From assembly GCA_964475855.1 (NCBI GenBank), contig CAYZAV010000001.1, forward strand, positions 49,060 through 113,059: 64,000 bases of DNA, in the 5' to 3' direction. Under the pieces are notes generated by a model that ran no database searches, was not told the origin of the DNA, and was given only the letters and a program-made list of their open reading frames with translations. A program made the position numbers and the translations under genes. Shown piece by piece: positions 50,935 to 58,880 of the stretch. This DNA comes from an uncultured Candidatus Saccharibacteria bacterium. Lineage in GTDB: Bacteria; Patescibacteriota; Minisyncoccia; Minisyncoccales; Staskawiczbacteraceae. Numbering within the stretch: the first letter of the stretch is position 1; each line of letters opens with the position of its first letter.

Positions 50935-52179
50935 TTATTTGGGCAACGGAAATTTTTTACACAATGTTTTAACTTCTTGCGTCACTTTTTTAGCGGACTT
51001 TGGATTTGAAATAATTTCATTAATCCAACCGGCAATCAGTTTCATTTCTTTCTCTTTCATGCCACGACTGGTAATGGCCGGAGTTCCCAAGCGCAACCCC
51101 GAAGGCTTAAACGGCGGCGCCGGGTCAAACGGGATGGCATTTTTATTGGTACTCATGCCCACACTTTCCAGTAAATCCTGGGCTTCTGCCCCACTGATAT
51201 GTTTATTACGTAAATCAATCAGCATCAAGTGATTTTCTGTGCCGCCGCTGATCAAATTAAAATCGTAATTTTTCAGTTCCCCTGCCAATGCCTTAGCATT
51301 TTTTACAATCTCTGCGGCATATTTTTTAAAAGCTGGGGTACTGGCTTCTTTCAAACACACTGCAATGGCGGCAATAGCGTTTTCGTGCGGCCCGCCTTGA
51401 AGCCCTGGGAAAATAGCCTTATCAATTTTTTTTGCCAGATCAGCATCTTTTGCCAGTCCCTTTTTAGTTACCATAATAATTCCGCCCCGCGGGCCGCGTA
51501 ATGTTTTATGTGTGGTAGTGGTAACAATATGCACGTATGGCACGGGGCTTGGGTGCGAACCACCGGCCACCAACCCGGCAATATGGGCAATATCGGCTGC
51601 CAAATAAGCTCCAACACTGTCAGCAATTTCACCCAATTTTTTCCAGTCAAAAATACGCGGACAAGCGCTTCCCCCAATCCACATCAATTTTGGCTTGTGT
51701 TCCTTGGCCATTTTTTCCAACGCCACATAATCTAATAACTGAGTTTTTTCATCTAAGCCATATTGTACCGGTTTAAAAAACCGGCCGGAAAAACTTAATT
51801 TAAATCCATGCGTCAAATGCCCGCCCATGGGCAAGGCCATACCCATAATAGTATCGCCTGGTTCACACGTTGCCATGTACACCGCGGCGTTAGCCGGGCT
51901 TCCCGAATGTGGCTGCACATTGGCATGCTCCACTCCGAACAATTTTTTGGCACGTTCAATGGCAAGTGTTTCCACCTTATCAATAAACTGATTGCCACCA
52001 TAATAGCGTTTTCCTGGGTAGCCTTCGGCGTATTTGTCCGTCAACAACGACCCAAGCGCCTCCCGCACCGCCGGCGAACAATGGTTTTCAGAGGGAATCA
52101 GCTGCAACGAAGTTTTCTGGCGGTCGCCTTCCAAGTCAATTAATTTGGCGATTTGCGCATCTTGCTTACTCAATTTCAT
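50935..52179 (-). CDS. glyA: serine hydroxymethyltransferase
   Basis: PLP-lysine block VTTTTHKTLRGPRGG and other conserved SHMT blocks. Start at MKLSKQDAQ. Confidence 0.95.
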   Translation of the reverse strand: MKLSKQDAQIAKLIDLEGDRQKTSLQLIPSENHCSPAVREALGSLLTDKYAEGYPGKRYYGGNQFIDKVETLAIERAKKLFGVEHANVQPHSGSPANAAVYMATCEPGDTIMGMALPMGGHLTHGFKLSFSGRFFKPVQYGLDEKTQLLDYVALEKMAKEHKPKLMWIGGSACPRIFDWKKLGEIADSVGAYLAADIAHIAGLVAGGSHPSPVPYVHIVTTTTHKTLRGPRGGIIMVTKKGLAKDADLAKKIDKAIFPGLQGGPHENAIAAIAVCLKEASTPAFKKYAAEIVKNAKALAGELKNYDFNLISGGTENHLMLIDLRNKHISGAEAQDLLESVGMSTNKNAIPFDPAPPFKPSGLRLGTPAITSRGMKEKEMKLIAGWINEIISNPKSAKKVTQEVKTLCKKFPLPK

Positions 52180-53164
52180 AGAATTTGGATAATATTTTTT
52201 TCTTAATTCTATAACTATTACCATGCTTTATCAATCCCAAATATGATGCCATATTTTTCCTGTTTGATAATGTAAATGCTCTCTGCTTGGTTTTTGTACG
52301 CAATATTTTGTGGTCCTTAAAATTAACCCACCCCAAAAAATCCACGCCGGATGAAACCGTTTTGATAAAAACTTTTTTTGGATGAAGTTGCAGTTTCAAC
52401 TTTTATTCCAAAAAGTCAGCTAATTTTGATATTAATTCTTGAAGATAATCTTTGTTTTCTGAAAAAATTACGAAATCATCAGCATATCTGATGTAATATT
52501 TCGCTTTTAATTTGTGTTTTACAAACTGATCAAATTCGTTCATGTATATGTTGCAGAATAATTGTGAAGTCAAGTTTCCCAGTGGTAGGCCAACGCCGGG
52601 TTTCCCTGCGTTAAAACTGGAAATGATATTTTCTAGCAAAGATATTAACCGCTTATCGGCAATATATTGACGTAAAATTCTAATCAAAGCAACCTGGTCA
52701 ATAGAATGGAAAAACTTTTTAATATCACATTTTAATATCCAACAGGTACGAGTGCCATTTTTGCTCACCTTGTAGTAAAAATCCCTAAATCTTCTATTAG
52801 CACGATGTGTACTCTTTTCCAGCCTACACGAAAAAGAGTCCGAAATGAAGGTATCATCGAAAAACGGATACAAAACACGATATAGCGCATGGTGCAAAAG
52901 CCGGTCGCGTACCGAAGCTTTATGAATAATCCGCGGCTTAGGATCATTAATCTTAAATTCTTGGTATCCGCCATGCAGGTATGTGTCATTGGCTAAATCG
53001 TGGTGAAGTGTTAGGATATTATCCATCAAGTAAAATTCAAATTCCCGTACATCTTTTTTGTCCTTTTTGCCTCTGACAAACTCTTCAAAGGCCCAAAGCA
53101 AATTCTGTACGTGAATAATATCATCAAACCTATGCCGCAGTTGAATCTTCATAGCGATAATCAA
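52166..53164 (-). CDS. diversity-generating-retroelement reverse transcriptase, interrupted by an in-frame TAA at 52403..52405 (possible pseudogene, sequencing error or readthrough)
   Basis: RT motifs incl. GLPLGNLTSQLFCNIY (DGR-type [I/L]GxxxSQ in motif 4) and YIRYADDFVIF (YxDD). Thumb-like KLQLHPKK...GVDFLGW continues in the same frame after the stop. Confidence 0.75.
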
Positions 53165-53196
53165 AGCCCTTTAAGCCCCCCCCCACGCAATTTAGC

Positions 53197-53529
53197 TTGA
53201 CACTCATCCAAAAGCTGGTTTCAGTTTACAAATTGTGGCACGAAATTTTGCCCCATTTTTCTAATAATTCAAAGTATACCCTGGGGCATAAAATTGATTC
53301 CTTCTTTTTGGAAACCATTGAACGGGTGATAAAAGCCGGCTACGCTAGCAAAGCCGAAAAAGAACTATTCCTATTGGGCGCTTCCGCCAAGCTGGATATG
53401 CTTAAGTTTTTCCTGCAAATCGCCTGGAACATAAAATCGGTAGATAATAAAAAATACATTTTGCTTTCCGAAAAATTAAACGAAGTTGGCAGGATGTTGG
53501 GCGGATGGATAAAATCCCTCAGACAGTAA
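53197..53529 (+). CDS. four-helix-bundle protein of the Avd (accessory variability determinant) family, divergent from the RT
   Basis: 110 aa. SKYTLGHKIDSFFLETIERVIKAGYA...LDMLKFFLQIAWNIK pattern of the TIGR02436 / 23S-rRNA-IVS four-helix-bundle family. Located between RT and TR but on the opposite strand. Confidence 0.55.
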   Translation: MTLIQKLVSVYKLWHEILPHFSNNSKYTLGHKIDSFFLETIERVIKAGYASKAEKELFLLGASAKLDMLKFFLQIAWNIKSVDNKKYILLSEKLNEVGRMLGGWIKSLRQ

Positions 53530-53565
53530 AAACCACCTCAAAAAAGGTGGTAAAAACAAAGAGAG

Positions 53566-53693
53566 TTGCGGACGGCGGCGAAACGACAATTCGCATTCCA
53601 GCTATTGTCATACCAATTCAGGTTCAACTTACGCTTGGAGTCGTACTCGTTCTGATAGACCACGCTGTGGTTGTCACCCGGGTTACGCCACAC
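53566..53693 (-). repeat. DGR template repeat (TR)
   Basis: Matches 54037..54164 except at 23 positions, where this copy always has T on the plus strand (A on the coding minus strand) and the other copy has C, G or A. Intergenic. Confidence 0.85.
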
Positions 53694-53953
53694 AAAATAT
53701 GCAAGATATCTTCCCTGCCACCACCCCTCAAATACTTTCAGAGTTGTATCTTATTCGGTATCTACAATATACCCTGATATCTTGCACCAAGTATCTTTAT
53801 TTTTTAAAAAATCAGGGGCGACTCTCAAAGAAGCCTTGGCCGCTTTGAATCTGCATAATCCTGAAATATAGAATTCGGCTGCCCGAAGCCGTAACCTCAA
53901 GCATAATAACCTACTATCCAAATTCATCTTACCTATTTTATAAAAAAAGAAAA

Positions 53954-53977
53954 GCCATATTCGTAAACGAATATGGC
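53954..53977 (-). terminator. 10-bp-stem hairpin plus T-run ~55 nt downstream of VR (terminator and possible DGR hairpin)
   Basis: GCCATATTCG-taaa-CGAATATGGC. On the minus strand it is followed by TTTTCTTTTTTTAT. Confidence 0.5.
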
Positions 53978-54032
53978 TCTGCTCCAAGGCTCCACAAATC
54001 CATTTGGGAACCAGAGAACCAAGTGACCAATT

Positions 54033-54656
54033 TTACTTGCGGACGGCGGCGAAACGACAACGCGCAAACCAGCTACGGCCATACCAATACAGGAGCAACC
54101 AACGCATGGAGTCGCACTCGCGCAGACAGACCACGCTGCGGCGGCCACCCGGGTCACGCCACACTTTCCCCAATGCAATGATTGGGTACTTGCGTTGCAA
54201 CTGTGAGTGTTGCTCGCCAACGGCCAACACGTCTTCGGGGTCAGCAGGCCGGAAACCTTCTTTTTCCATAGCCGCAATGACGTCGTCAGATTCCATATTA
54301 CGGTCAAAATGGAAGAAAGTTATTTCCTTTTCCTGCTTGCCCATGCCGGTCAGTAGGAAACGCTCCTGGGTTATATCCTTATCATCCCAGTCATACTTCC
54401 CCGCCGTGATCATCTGGGCTAAGGTTCGGGAATAGTCCACCGTCACCTTGACGGTTTCGCGAACCACTACCTTGCCGCCGTTAATGATCAGTTCGGCGAT
54501 CTGGTTGATGAGGGATTCTCCCTCGGGCTTAACCAGCTTGCGGAAGATAGCGTCAGCATCGCCTCCGCGTTGCTGGAGCGCCTTGACCAACGCCTGGATG
54601 AAACTCATCACGACGCCAACGTAAGAAACCGATTCGCAACTCTTCATGGTACGCAC
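54033..54656 (-). CDS. DGR target protein (207 aa) with variable C-terminal ~43 residues
   Basis: VR covers the last ~43 codons up to the stop (…KVWRDPGGRRSVVCLRECDSMRWLLLYWYGRSWFARCRFAAVRK). GC-rich relative to the RT. Confidence 0.75.
   Translation of the reverse strand: MRTMKSCESVSYVGVVMSFIQALVKALQQRGGDADAIFRKLVKPEGESLINQIAELIINGGKVVVRETVKVTVDYSRTLAQMITAGKYDWDDKDITQERFLLTGMGKQEKEITFFHFDRNMESDDVIAAMEKEGFRPADPEDVLAVGEQHSQLQRKYPIIALGKVWRDPGGRRSVVCLRECDSMRWLLLYWYGRSWFARCRFAAVRK
54037..54164 (-). repeat. DGR variable repeat (VR) at 3' end of target gene
   Basis: See TR. The GC-rich 3' end (CGTTTCGCCGCCGTCCGCAA on the coding strand), identical in both copies, is consistent with an IMH-like region. 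Confidence 0.85.
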
Positions 54657-54777
54657 TCCGATGGTTCGGTTTACCCCTCGCTCCAGGCAACATACCCAAA
54701 GCCCTAGATAAACCTGAAATGTACTTAGAAATAGGGCTTTTTTTGCTCTATTTAGCCCATAAGTCTATTATACTACT

Positions 54778-55329
54778 TTACCTAATTCTTGTCAAGTGCT
54801 TAGTAGTTAAATCCAGAATTTTAGATGATTTGGCGTTTTTAGCCCTTCCCCCGTCAATTATGAGGCCCACCAGGCGAGTTTTACCGAAAGTAGTAGTAAT
54901 ATCAGCTATGGAATTCAGTGGCTCTTGCCCTGCCAAATTGACCGAAGTTTGCACCAGCGGCCTGTCTATTTTTTTAAGTAATTTTTGTAAAAATGGGTGC
55001 CCGGGAATACGGATGGCAATGTTGTCTTTTTTAACGCCGTATAATTTTGTACCGGTTTTTCTTTTTAAAACGGCTGTAACTTTTCCCGGCCAATATTTTT
55101 TAAGCAGCTTTGATTGTCGCATATCAATTTCTGCAATTTGACGGGCCATGGAAATACTTTTTACAAATAGTGAAAGTGGTTTGGTTTTTGGCCGGCGCTT
55201 TATTTTGTAAATTTTATCTACTGCTTTTTTATTAGTGGCGTCTGCCAAAAAACCATATACGGTATCGGTTGGACAAATAATGACGCTGCCTTTTTTTAAA
55301 GCAGCAACTGCGTTATTTAGTTGTTCCAT
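54778..55329 (-). CDS. tsaC: L-threonylcarbamoyladenylate synthase (YrdC/TsaC domain)
   Basis: VIICPTDTVYGFLADA and other YrdC blocks. 183 aa. Confidence 0.85.
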   Translation of the reverse strand: MEQLNNAVAALKKGSVIICPTDTVYGFLADATNKKAVDKIYKIKRRPKTKPLSLFVKSISMARQIAEIDMRQSKLLKKYWPGKVTAVLKRKTGTKLYGVKKDNIAIRIPGHPFLQKLLKKIDRPLVQTSVNLAGQEPLNSIADITTTFGKTRLVGLIIDGGRAKNAKSSKILDLTTKHLTRIR

Positions 55330-56057: not shown

Positions 56058-58880
56058 TTAGATTACAAAATTAATCAATTTATTTGGAATAAAGATAACT
56101 TTTCTGATTTCCTTGCCTTCCAACCATGGTTGTAATTTAGGTGCAAGCAAGGCAAGATCTTGCATCTCCGCCTGGCTTAATCCAATTTTCACTTCCATTT
56201 TGTCGCGCACTTTTCCGTTTACGGAAACTATCATCATAATAGCGGTTTCTTTGACTTCTTCATGCTTTGGCCACGTTTTCAGATTCAAGCCCAGCTCAGC
56301 CGCCAAATGCGGCGCAAACGGTGAAAGAATGGCCAAGAATTTCTGCATATCTTTCTTGTCTAAACCAGTTTCTGAGGCACTCCACTCATTCACAAACGAC
56401 ATCATGGCCGAAACCGCCGTATTAAATTTCATTTCCTCAATATCTTCAGAAACCTTTTTAATGGTTTTATTGAGAGAAATTGTTAATTGTTTATTGTTTA
56501 TTGTTAATTGCGAGCCGAGGGCGAGCTTATATACTTTCTCCAAAAACCTTCTTGCCCCCACAATACCCTTGTCATCCCAAGGAATCATTTGCTCAAACGG
56601 CCCCATGAACATTTCATACACGCGCAGAGTATCGGCGCCATACTGCTTAGCCACGTCATCGGGGTTGATCACATTTCCGCGGGATTTAGACATTTTAACT
56701 GCTCCCGGCCCCAAAATAATCCCATGCGAAGTGCGCTTTTTATATGGCTCATTTCCTATTTCTTTTGGCACGGCGCCAATGTCCCACAAAAATTTAAAGA
56801 TAAACCGGGAATACAACAAATGCAACGTAGTGTGCTCCATGCCGCCATTGTACCAGTCCACAGGCATCCAGTAGTTAGTTAATTTCGGATTTCGGATTTC
56901 GAATTTCGAATTTCCTTGCTGATTTGCGGTCAAATAAGCAAGGTAGTACCAATTTGACCCAGCCCAATTCGGCATAGTATCCGTTTCACGCCGGGCAGGC
57001 TTTTTGCAAGTTGGACATTTTACATTCACCCATTTTTCTATAGCTGACAAAGGCGATTCTCCCGTATCCGTCGGCTGGTATTTTTTTACCTTGGGTAATT
57101 CAACGGGCAGTTGTTTTTCCGGAACTACAACCCAACCACAATCTTTACAGTTAATCATGGGAATCGGCTCTCCCCAATAATGTTGGCGCGAAAAAATCCA
57201 ATCGCGCAACTTATAATTGACCGTCATTTTCCCGCCGACAAAGAATGTCATTTCCACTTTGGATTTTTGTGAATCCATGCCCGAAAATGTTCCGGAATTT
57301 ACCAAAAACCCATCACCAGTATACACATAATTTTCTGTTGCTAATTGGTTTGTCCAATGGCCAACTTCTGCATGGGTCATGTGTTCGTAATCCAGCGTAT
57401 CGGCTGGCAGCCAGACAATGGCATGGGCATCCTGTTCTTTTTGTGAAACTTCTACCCGCTCTTTTCCAGCCAACTCAAACACAACAGCCGTGGTATATGA
57501 TATCCGGTTTTCATCTTTGTGTGCTGCAAAATATTCCGCCCGAGCTCTTCCCGGTAAAATCCTTTTCAGCACCACATTGGTAAAACCCGTTTCTTCCCTG
57601 ATTTCCCGCCTGGCGGCCTCCACTACATCTTCGCCATCTTCCACGCCACCCATCGGGAATGTGGTCCAGTCAAATTTTTTCCATTTCAAGCCCAAATAGT
57701 TTCCCGTGGCCGGGTCACGCACAATGGCATGCACATTTTGGCGCTCAACAAATTTCTTGCCTGCAACCGGGGGATTGCGTTTATCAACAATATTAGGAAC
57801 CACTACTTCTTTAATAGACAAGGCATACTTTTTAGCAAATATAAAATCGCGCTCGTCGTGTGCCGGGACGGCCATAATGGCTCCGGTGCCATAGCCCATC
57901 ATAACGTAATCAGCAATAAAAATAGGAACTTCCTGTCCTGTGGCCGGGTTAATGGCTTTTACTCCTTTTAATTCAACACCCGTTTTTTCCTTGTTTTCCT
58001 GTCGCTCTATATCTGATTTATTTTTCGCCTCTGCGATATATTGTTCAACTTCTTTTTTATTTTCTAACTGTAAAACATTGACCAGCGCGTGCTCCGGCGC
58101 CAGCACCAAAAACGTACAACCAAACAGCGTATCCGGCCTGGTTGTAAAAATAGGTATTGTAAATTGTGTATTGTTTATTGTAAATTCCAGCTCTGTTCCT
58201 TCGCTACGCCCAATCCAGTTTTTCTGCTGATCTTTGACGCGGCTTGGGTAATCCACCAAATCTAAATCTTTGATCAGCCGGTCTGCATACTTGGTAATTT
58301 TAATCAGCCACTGTTCCTTTTCCCGTTTTTGGACCGGCGTGCCGCAGCGTTCGCATTTCCCATTAATAACCTCTTCATTTGCCAAACCGGTTTTACAGCT
58401 AGGACACCAGTTAATGGCCATTTTTTCTTTGTAAGCCAAGCCCGCCTCAAATAATTTAACAAAAATCCACTGGGTCCATTTGTAGTATTTCAGGTCGGTG
58501 GTGTTTACTTCCCGGCTCCAATCAAATGAAAGCCCCAAGTTTTTCATCTGCTTGCGGAAATTGTCGGTATTTTTTTTGGTTACCACGGCCGGATGCACAC
58601 CTTTTTTAATAGCGTAGTTTTCCGTAGGCAGGCCAAAAGCATCCCAGCCCATAGGATACAGTACGTTAAAACCCTGTAGTCGCCGTTTGCGGGAAATGAC
58701 ATCCAAGCCAATATACGGCCGACAGTGACCCACATGCAAACCATCACCAGAAGGAAATGGGAATTCGGTCAACAGGTAAGCTTTAGGTTTTTTAGATGTA
58801 TTGCTAGCCGAAAAAATAGTGGAACTGTACCACATCTTTTGCCACTTTTTCTCTATTTTTTGAGGGTTGTATTTTTGCAT
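56058..58880 (-). CDS. leuS: leucine--tRNA ligase lacking the CP1 editing domain and carrying a Nudix-domain insertion
   Basis: HVGH (HIGH), KMSKS, TRPDT, AHDERDF, YKLRDWIFSRQHYWGEPIP. Only ~55 aa lie between TRPDT and the KTG region. ~140 extra aa sit between FAKKYALSIKEVV and TGDGFLVNSG, with the Nudix box GGVEDGEDVVEAARREIREETGF. Confidence 0.95.
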   Translation of the reverse strand: MQKYNPQKIEKKWQKMWYSSTIFSASNTSKKPKAYLLTEFPFPSGDGLHVGHCRPYIGLDVISRKRRLQGFNVLYPMGWDAFGLPTENYAIKKGVHPAVVTKKNTDNFRKQMKNLGLSFDWSREVNTTDLKYYKWTQWIFVKLFEAGLAYKEKMAINWCPSCKTGLANEEVINGKCERCGTPVQKREKEQWLIKITKYADRLIKDLDLVDYPSRVKDQQKNWIGRSEGTELEFTINNTQFTIPIFTTRPDTLFGCTFLVLAPEHALVNVLQLENKKEVEQYIAEAKNKSDIERQENKEKTGVELKGVKAINPATGQEVPIFIADYVMMGYGTGAIMAVPAHDERDFIFAKKYALSIKEVVVPNIVDKRNPPVAGKKFVERQNVHAIVRDPATGNYLGLKWKKFDWTTFPMGGVEDGEDVVEAARREIREETGFTNVVLKRILPGRARAEYFAAHKDENRISYTTAVVFELAGKERVEVSQKEQDAHAIVWLPADTLDYEHMTHAEVGHWTNQLATENYVYTGDGFLVNSGTFSGMDSQKSKVEMTFFVGGKMTVNYKLRDWIFSRQHYWGEPIPMINCKDCGWVVVPEKQLPVELPKVKKYQPTDTGESPLSAIEKWVNVKCPTCKKPARRETDTMPNWAGSNWYYLAYLTANQQGNSKFEIRNPKLTNYWMPVDWYNGGMEHTTLHLLYSRFIFKFLWDIGAVPKEIGNEPYKKRTSHGIILGPGAVKMSKSRGNVINPDDVAKQYGADTLRVYEMFMGPFEQMIPWDDKGIVGARRFLEKVYKLALGSQLTINNKQLTISLNKTIKKVSEDIEEMKFNTAVSAMMSFVNEWSASETGLDKKDMQKFLAILSPFAPHLAAELGLNLKTWPKHEEVKETAIMMIVSVNGKVRDKMEVKIGLSQAEMQDLALLAPKLQPWLEGKEIRKVIFIPNKLINFVI

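Follow-up and report, generated by a model that had tools for sequence, protein, structure and literature searches.

The element described here lies within a stretch of 64,000 nucleotides (the window) of contig CAYZAV010000001.1, from an uncultured bacterium of the Patescibacteria. It consists of a gene for a small target protein that ends in a variable repeat (VR), a template repeat (TR), an inverted avd gene, and a reverse transcriptase (RT) gene, in that order, and we regard it as practically certain that together they form a diversity-generating retroelement (DGR). Judged by gene order and sequence, the locus is a chromosomal DGR of architecture B3, belonging to the lineage found in Patescibacteria (the candidate phyla radiation, CPR). 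The B3 architecture, TR-(avd)-RT, makes up 90% of the CPR set of Wu et al. (PMC5758913), and DGR clade 2 of Roux et al. 2021 (PMC8144416) is restricted to CPR bacteria and has targets without recognisable domains. A preliminary description of this DNA, made from the sequence alone, had recognised the DGR but called it complete and passed over the avd gene between TR and RT; the RT frame is in fact broken by a TAA codon, which is the same in six other assemblies. Taken as a whole, the reading that we consider very likely is that of a DGR of the Patescibacteria lineage, most likely one that was silenced recently and whose VR is frozen.

The evidence for a DGR begins with the repeats themselves. 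A repeat search of the window returned them as a single direct match of 128 nt with 82% identity, at exactly the coordinates first reported, and the alignment and tabulation of mismatches that the preliminary description had proposed gave the same count as before: on the minus strand 23 positions distinguish the two copies, and the TR base is A at 23/23 of them. The VR bases opposite these adenines are G (11), T (7) and C (5). Altogether, 23 of the 33 TR adenines are altered in the VR and none of the other TR bases is; the probability that 23 randomly placed mismatch sites would all fall among 33 adenines in 128 positions is 6.7e-18. By VR codon position, 13 of the TR adenines stand at position 1, 20 at position 2 and none at position 3, and the TR holds eight AAY codons; a 51-aa open reading frame (ORF) that overlaps the TR is merely the TR read in the VR frame. 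As a signature in the alignment, the 23 A-to-N differences show that rewriting of the VR took place in this lineage.

The 3' ends of the two repeats are of a different character. Their final 24 nt are the same in both copies, GC-rich and free of changes, and the homology stops one base past CGCAA; the VR carries the stretch TGTCGTTTCGCCGCCGTCCGCAA. This end had been likened to an initiation of mutagenic homing (IMH) site, a role that it may have; other DGRs are also known in which IMH and IMH* are identical. The 3' 23-mer of the repeats occurs only twice in the window when three mismatches are allowed, and a search for further VRs belonging to this TR, which covered the 64-kb window, met the TR in no third place even when all its adenines were treated as wildcards.

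The same mismatch pattern extends to relatives of the locus. In a scan of one genome for each species, the target family was encoded at 187 loci, those with a named source all being Patescibacteria; 80 of them were retrieved, and the cassette comparisons given here use 33-37 of these. The retrieved loci come essentially all from Patescibacteria, across many candidate phyla, and in 33 related loci the TR/VR mismatches comprise 614 A-to-N changes versus 50 others. The layout with an inverted avd is found at 36 of the 80 loci with near-fixed spacing, mostly 5-38 nt from the end of the TR to the avd stop and about 30-75 nt from the avd core to the RT start. In the window (Table 1), the avd core is matched by Pfam bAvd PF22296 (61.9 bits, cut-off 40) and by PHROG 3206, 'Avd protein of DGR' (61.1 bits), and scores 70.7 bits with NCBIfam DivGenRetAVD, under the cut-off of 80.

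Table 1. Coordinates of the DGR and associated features in the window, listed in the direction of target transcription.
Feature	Position	Strand	Remarks
Promoter-like site	54767-54795	-	TTGACA-17-TATAAT, 12/12 consensus match; upstream of target; sequence match alone
Target (variable protein) gene	54033-54647	-	204 aa from ATG 54647; ORF finder: GTG 54656
Variable repeat (VR)	54037-54164	-	Last ~43 codons of target ORF
Hairpin with T run	53951-53980	-	13 bp, 52 nt past target stop; from terminator scan
Conserved TR leader	53694-53745	-	GAAAGTATTTGAGGGGTGGTGGCAGGGAAGATA...; contains GGGGTGGTGG at 53718-53727
Template repeat (TR)	53566-53693	-	128-nt repeat; A at all mismatch sites
Stem-loop with U tail	53532-53551	-	ACCACCTT/GAGGTGGT; 8-bp stem, begins 13 nt past TR
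avd core	53197-53529	+	110 aa from TTG 53197; opposite strand to TR, RT and target
Short ORF	53132-53200	+	MPQLNLHSDNQSPLSPPPRNLA*; ATG 53132 through C run to TGA 53198
C9 homopolymer	53176-53184	+	G9 on RT strand; between avd core and RT start
RT, N-terminal part	52403-53152	-	249 aa from ATG 53152; N-terminal extension, fingers, palm
RT, in-frame TAA	52400-52402	-	Read from sequence; ahead of motifs 6/7 and thumb
RT, C-terminal remnant	52166-52399	-	Motifs 6/7 LHPKK...GVDFLGW and thumb; 77-aa ORF

The RT is encoded on the same strand as the repeats and, as previously described, bears the motifs LGNLTSQ and YADD on retranslation; it matches Pfam RVT_1 with 77.1 bits and PHROG 1423 with 271.8 bits. 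The TAA, in the context ADFLE*KLKLQLHPKK, divides it into ORFs of 253 aa (249 from the ATG) and 77 aa. When the two parts are joined across the stop, 98% of the product's length aligns at 62-71% identity with thousands of Patescibacteria RTs of 320-350 aa known from metagenome-assembled genomes, and the relatives that match it sit in TR/VR/Avd cassettes. An alignment of 14 RTs has E, Q, D, N, S or T in the column of the TAA, and one G-to-T change in GAA would suffice to create the stop. All of the family-invariant residues past the stop (LHPxK, GxDFLGW and others) are retained, which argues that the lesion is recent. It is no assembly error, since six further assemblies (runs ERR3094294-6 together with ERZ27247828, ERZ27247830 and ERZ27247837) show 100% identity with the window over the whole cassette, TAA and VR included. 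Among 37 related cassettes most RTs are open, one having a stop at codon 22, two frameshifts and four being fragments, and in none does a stop occur at the position of that in the window; we therefore reject programmed recoding in favour of ordinary decay. The C-terminal ORF of the RT shares 14 nt (52166-52179) with the beginning of glyA (serine hydroxymethyltransferase), so that the DGR adjoins a housekeeping gene without intergenic space.

The activity of the window's element and of its relatives was compared through consensus assemblies from different samples. In the species of the window, the VR shows zero differences among the window and the six assemblies, and the contigs are unbroken at the VR. 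For three relatives whose genes are intact, the VR is the only part in which assemblies of separate samples disagree, nearly always at TR adenines. Between Ca. Giovannonibacteria CP066687.1 and a Logan assembly, TR adenines account for 19/19 differences, and the VR is where several contigs break off; in the species designated P0068 this holds for 16/16 differences; and the species P0146 has several VR alleles. The reference VR of P0146 (L193; 1570-1686) is an allele with an unusual bias to G, having almost only G at the diversified positions, where L195, L197 and L198 carry A, T or C. Scans of JGI metagenomes with the adenine-wildcarded TR and with its 3' 35-mer found no VR variants.

We think it probable that the window holds a recently silenced element with a frozen VR, a reading for which the nonsense codon in the RT and the zero VR differences in seven sequences are the grounds. 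Several points weigh against it. The six identical assemblies probably go back to a single study and give the consensus only, in which minor VR variants are invisible; a TTG 4 nt past the RT stop permits reinitiation, which would yield a two-piece RT; the intact invariant residues beyond the stop may mean that the C-terminal part is still expressed, if not that the mutation is recent; and the contig, of which the window covers 64 kb, is at least 344 kb long and could encode elsewhere a second RT acting in trans. A DGR that is still active, whether by readthrough of the TAA, by an RT made as two polypeptides (249 aa, and 77 aa from the TTG) or by an RT supplied in trans, would agree with these points, as it would with the intact TR, Avd core, stem-loop and promoter-like elements and with a proportion of diversified adenines like that of active elements. 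We nevertheless consider continued activity unlikely: TAA is an ordinary stop in the window, where it ends for example the target gene; the 64 kb contain no other RT, Avd or target copy; the thumb of the Bordetella RT, which in the window would lie beyond the stop, makes essential RNA contacts; the absence of a stop at this place from the related RTs speaks against recoding; and the VR is invariant in seven assemblies whereas relatives with intact genes vary.

A more radical doubt would concern the DGR itself, with the repeats taken for a gene 3' end duplicated by chance or recombination, or for an artefact of assembly, and the RT for one from a defence system, a retron or a group II intron. 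The best NCBIfam match of the RT is indeed a model of group II intron RT/maturases, at 115 bits against a cut-off of 300, and models of defence-associated reverse transcriptases (DRT) match weakly; the NCBIfam and PADLOC matches to the group II intron, retron, DRT and Abi families all lie far under their cut-offs. No maturase or endonuclease domain, intron RNA or retron noncoding RNA was found, and Rfam has no match in 52000-55000. Since mismatches confined to adenines have a chance probability of only about 7e-18 and the TR adenines avoid codon position 3, since Avd adjoins TR and RT, since more than 30 other genomes carry this cassette with the same bias of mismatches, and since seven assemblies agree on the sequence, we hold such an explanation to be extremely improbable. 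The locus is in our view an ordinary member of a known lineage of CPR DGRs, and probably a recently inactivated copy.

The VR forms the end of the target gene as first described, with the qualification that the ATG at 54647, preceded by GGAG, is a likelier start than the GTG at 54656. Gene calls in databases give the target 204 aa or 191 aa, and on the contigs of the six assemblies (ENA/Logan) 191 aa in two and 204 aa in four. In the protein, N-terminal helices of about 57 aa precede a C-type-lectin-like domain; like DGR targets of the CLec/FGE-like kind, it ends in a C-terminal fold that bears the variable residues. Its sequence has no match in Pfam, NCBIfam, PHROGs, PADLOC or the PDB sequences, and a comparison of its fold with the PDB by Foldseek gave nothing at E <= 0.001. 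There is no lipoprotein or signal sequence, and the highest 19-residue hydropathy (1.57) is borderline. The 48 homologs in databases, each of about 200 aa, have in common GKYDW, FPIVALGSVW, a hypervariable part and, at the end, CRFAAVRK; set against the main text of Wu et al. alone, this GKYDW...FPIVALGSVW...CRFAAVRK family was not matched to a named VR class. The target defines a widespread family of small C-type-lectin-like proteins for which Pfam has no model, and about half of its members adjoin a DGR while half stand alone.

The distribution of the family includes some further arrangements. There is no RT or Avd within 5 kb at 44 of the 80 target-family loci (for example L008, L010, L013, L015 and L018), and the target genes at these loci may be orphans or remote targets. 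Pairs of target copies in tandem occur at L003, L009, L036, L037, L059, L065, L070 and L076; L065 combines two identical VRs with a frameshifted RT. In IMG/VR one contig only encodes the family (IMGVR_UViG_3300024331_000091, 36.9 kb; L090/L091), with a target copy near each end and an Avd/RT pair, and this contig could be a phage or plasmid of Patescibacteria or a misclassified cellular contig.

The sole G/C run of 7 or more nucleotides in the 64 kb of the window is the C9 tract between avd core and RT start, and this tract recurs in relatives of the locus. The 719 kb of related loci contain 30 G/C runs of at least 8 nt, of which 27 are at exactly this site; the G is always on the RT strand, and the length ranges from G7 to G22, is usually 8-14 nt, and is most often 10. 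A run at the equivalent site is present in loci L006-L082, L093, L172, L178, L186, L189, L192, L193 and L203-L213. Five further loci, picked by RT similarity alone, all have it (5/5), four of them with unrelated targets, and no such homopolymer was found in B3 DGRs whose RT is 44-52% identical or in phage DGRs. In our search of the literature, we found no paper that describes a conserved G/C homopolymer in avd.

The relatives that lack a run indicate where it lies with respect to avd. In these, the start codon of avd is an ATG that stands 16-17 codons ahead of the Avd profile start. This ATG overlaps with the beginning of the RT gene on the opposite strand, and 5/5 close relatives have it in frame; where a run is present it should accordingly fall inside avd and encode PPP. 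Following this analysis we gave up an intergenic position of the homopolymer in favour of an intragenic one, and on sequence comparison it probably lies within an N-terminally extended avd. The avd core of the window is one C short of the frame of its probable upstream start codon: an extra C would fuse the ORF from ATG 53132 in frame with avd. This upstream ATG is in frame in 5/37 loci with a run of at least 7 vs 8/12 without (Fisher p = 0.0009), and 16/36 run-bearing loci lack a canonical start anywhere in codons 1-20 of the avd core.

The length of the run is variable within species. One species has G9 in two assemblies and G10 in three, and another has G22 vs at least G26, with contigs that end at the run. 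The in-frame state moreover coincides with VR variation between samples, in that the three species that are in frame vary, and the out-of-frame species (that of the window, P0089 and P0052) show no VR variation, a comparison of 3 vs 3 species in consensus data. We tentatively suggest, as a possibility to which we give rather less than even weight, that the homopolymer is a length-dependent switch or throttle on the production of Avd and hence on hypermutation; switching might occur by slipped-strand phase variation, by transcriptional slippage, or by ribosomal frameshifting on CCC-C. A -10-like sequence, GGTAAAAy, 5 nt upstream of the run could suggest instead that the tract is a promoter spacer or a feature of RT transcription start, but its conservation is uninformative because it stands within avd coding sequence. 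The tract resembles the phase-variable poly-G/C loci of Neisseria, Campylobacter and Haemophilus, and poly-C/poly-Pro frameshift sites, in that 8-14 nt of G/C stand close to where a coding region begins. As at homopolymer contingency loci, the length varies between samples of one species and the frames are mostly broken in consensus assemblies; unlike at those loci, the tract belongs to an accessory gene of a mutator element and not to a surface antigen gene, and its switching is putative. A homopolymer in avd offers a testable handle on how cells time the DGR mutation of the target.

Several potential RNA structures accompany the repeats. Just past the TR, a hairpin with a T tail is present in 28/33 related loci, mostly 10-16 nt from the TR and with 26 distinct stem sequences; in the control for this explicit hairpin scan, 2.5% of random windows contain a comparable hairpin and tail. 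Alignment of the region past the TR by MAFFT followed by RNAalifold predicted no structure, the hairpins being misaligned. An Avd-binding stem-loop has been seen in the structure of the Bordetella ribonucleoprotein and predicted in CPR DGRs (bioRxiv 10.1101/2023.10.23.563531), and by analogy the stem-loop past the TR of the window is probably the Avd-binding stem-loop of the DGR RNA; it also resembles an intrinsic terminator. A second type of long-stem hairpin follows the target stop in 21/33 related loci, at distances of 24-71 nt and mostly about 50-60 nt. These hairpins are perfect, of 10-16 bp, and often have GNRA or UNCG loops. By its likeness to the hairpin downstream of the Bordetella IMH, the hairpin past the VR could be a target-recognition element, or else a terminator.

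On the other side of the TR, the leader can be aligned over 21 loci and has a small covarying hairpin within it. In the window, the GGGGTGGTGG of the leader is fully complementary to CCATCCGCCC (53499-53508), which is the antisense of the LGGW codons of Avd. The duplex that would result, GGGYGGUGG:CCAxCCRCC, has 81.5% of alignment cells paired and one covarying pair, and 59/500 shuffles reach its score; the covariation is weak and is confounded, one strand being antisense to the conserved Avd LGGW codons. RNAduplex comparison of cognate with non-cognate pairs of leader and spacer gave no significant difference (p = 0.16). This candidate leader duplex could be an equivalent of the cPRT-Stop duplex, encoded antisense to a conserved protein motif.

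Following the paradigm of the Bordetella phage, an RNA containing the TR and the downstream stem-loop would be bound by an Avd pentamer and the RT, and the TR RNA would be reverse-transcribed with random misincorporation opposite adenines. The resulting cDNA would replace the VR, and so could rewrite as many as 33 nucleotide positions, in about 22 codons, for the face with which the small C-type-lectin-fold target binds its ligand. With the DGR of Bordetella BPP-1 (mtd-avd-TR-brt), the window shares the adenine-specific transfer from TR to VR, an Avd partner, a VR at the C-terminus of a C-type-lectin-fold protein, a GC-rich 3' end common to TR and VR, and a stem-loop just past the TR like the Avd-binding Sp 3-33 stem-loop. 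It differs in that avd is on the opposite strand and fills most of a TR-RT spacer of about 410 nt, whereas BPP-1 has a non-coding spacer of 140 nt; that the equivalents of IMH and IMH* are the same over the last 24 nt; that the hairpin past the VR is about 50 nt off and terminator-like; and that the element is cellular and not of a phage, with a target that is not a tail fibre. To the Treponema denticola TvpA and the Legionella LdtA/Lcl-type proteins the target has no sequence similarity (no Pfam FGE-sulfatase/DUF1566 and no PDB match), and in contrast to them it has no lipoprotein or signal sequence and is much smaller at 204 aa.

The first survey of DGRs in CPR bacteria is reportedly that of Paul et al. 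from 2017, in Nat Microbiol. The closest counterparts of the locus are the CPR DGRs of the B3 'CPR set' of Wu et al. 2018 (PMC5758913) and of clade 2 of Roux et al. 2021 (PMC8144416), with which it has in common the order target-VR, TR, inverted avd and RT, the chromosomal location, and a small target without a recognisable Pfam or transmembrane domain, and from which it differs in an RT interrupted by a nonsense codon. With hundreds of Patescibacteria RTs, that of the locus shares 55-74% identity. The DGR is real, as the preliminary description had it, and a hypervariable system of this kind in a small-genome organism is not unusual, B3 being the norm in CPR bacteria (PMC5758913, PMC8144416). 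As a DGR the locus adds little, in that thousands of CPR DGRs of the same architecture have been catalogued and broken RTs are common: Wu et al. discarded over half of their candidate DGRs for premature stops, truncations and similar defects (PMC5758913). It does carry a caution, namely that a textbook TR/VR signature is not the same as an active element.

Two features of the surrounding sequence may be added. The G+C content across 52200-54600 is strongly uneven, at about 53% in the target gene, 32% in the RT and 43% in the flanks. Upstream of the target, a leucyl-tRNA synthetase gene (56058-58880, minus strand) encodes a NUDIX hydrolase domain (Pfam, 49.6 bits) at residues 383-505, an unusual fusion in which the NUDIX domain is inserted past a partial editing domain (profile positions 1-146 of 185).

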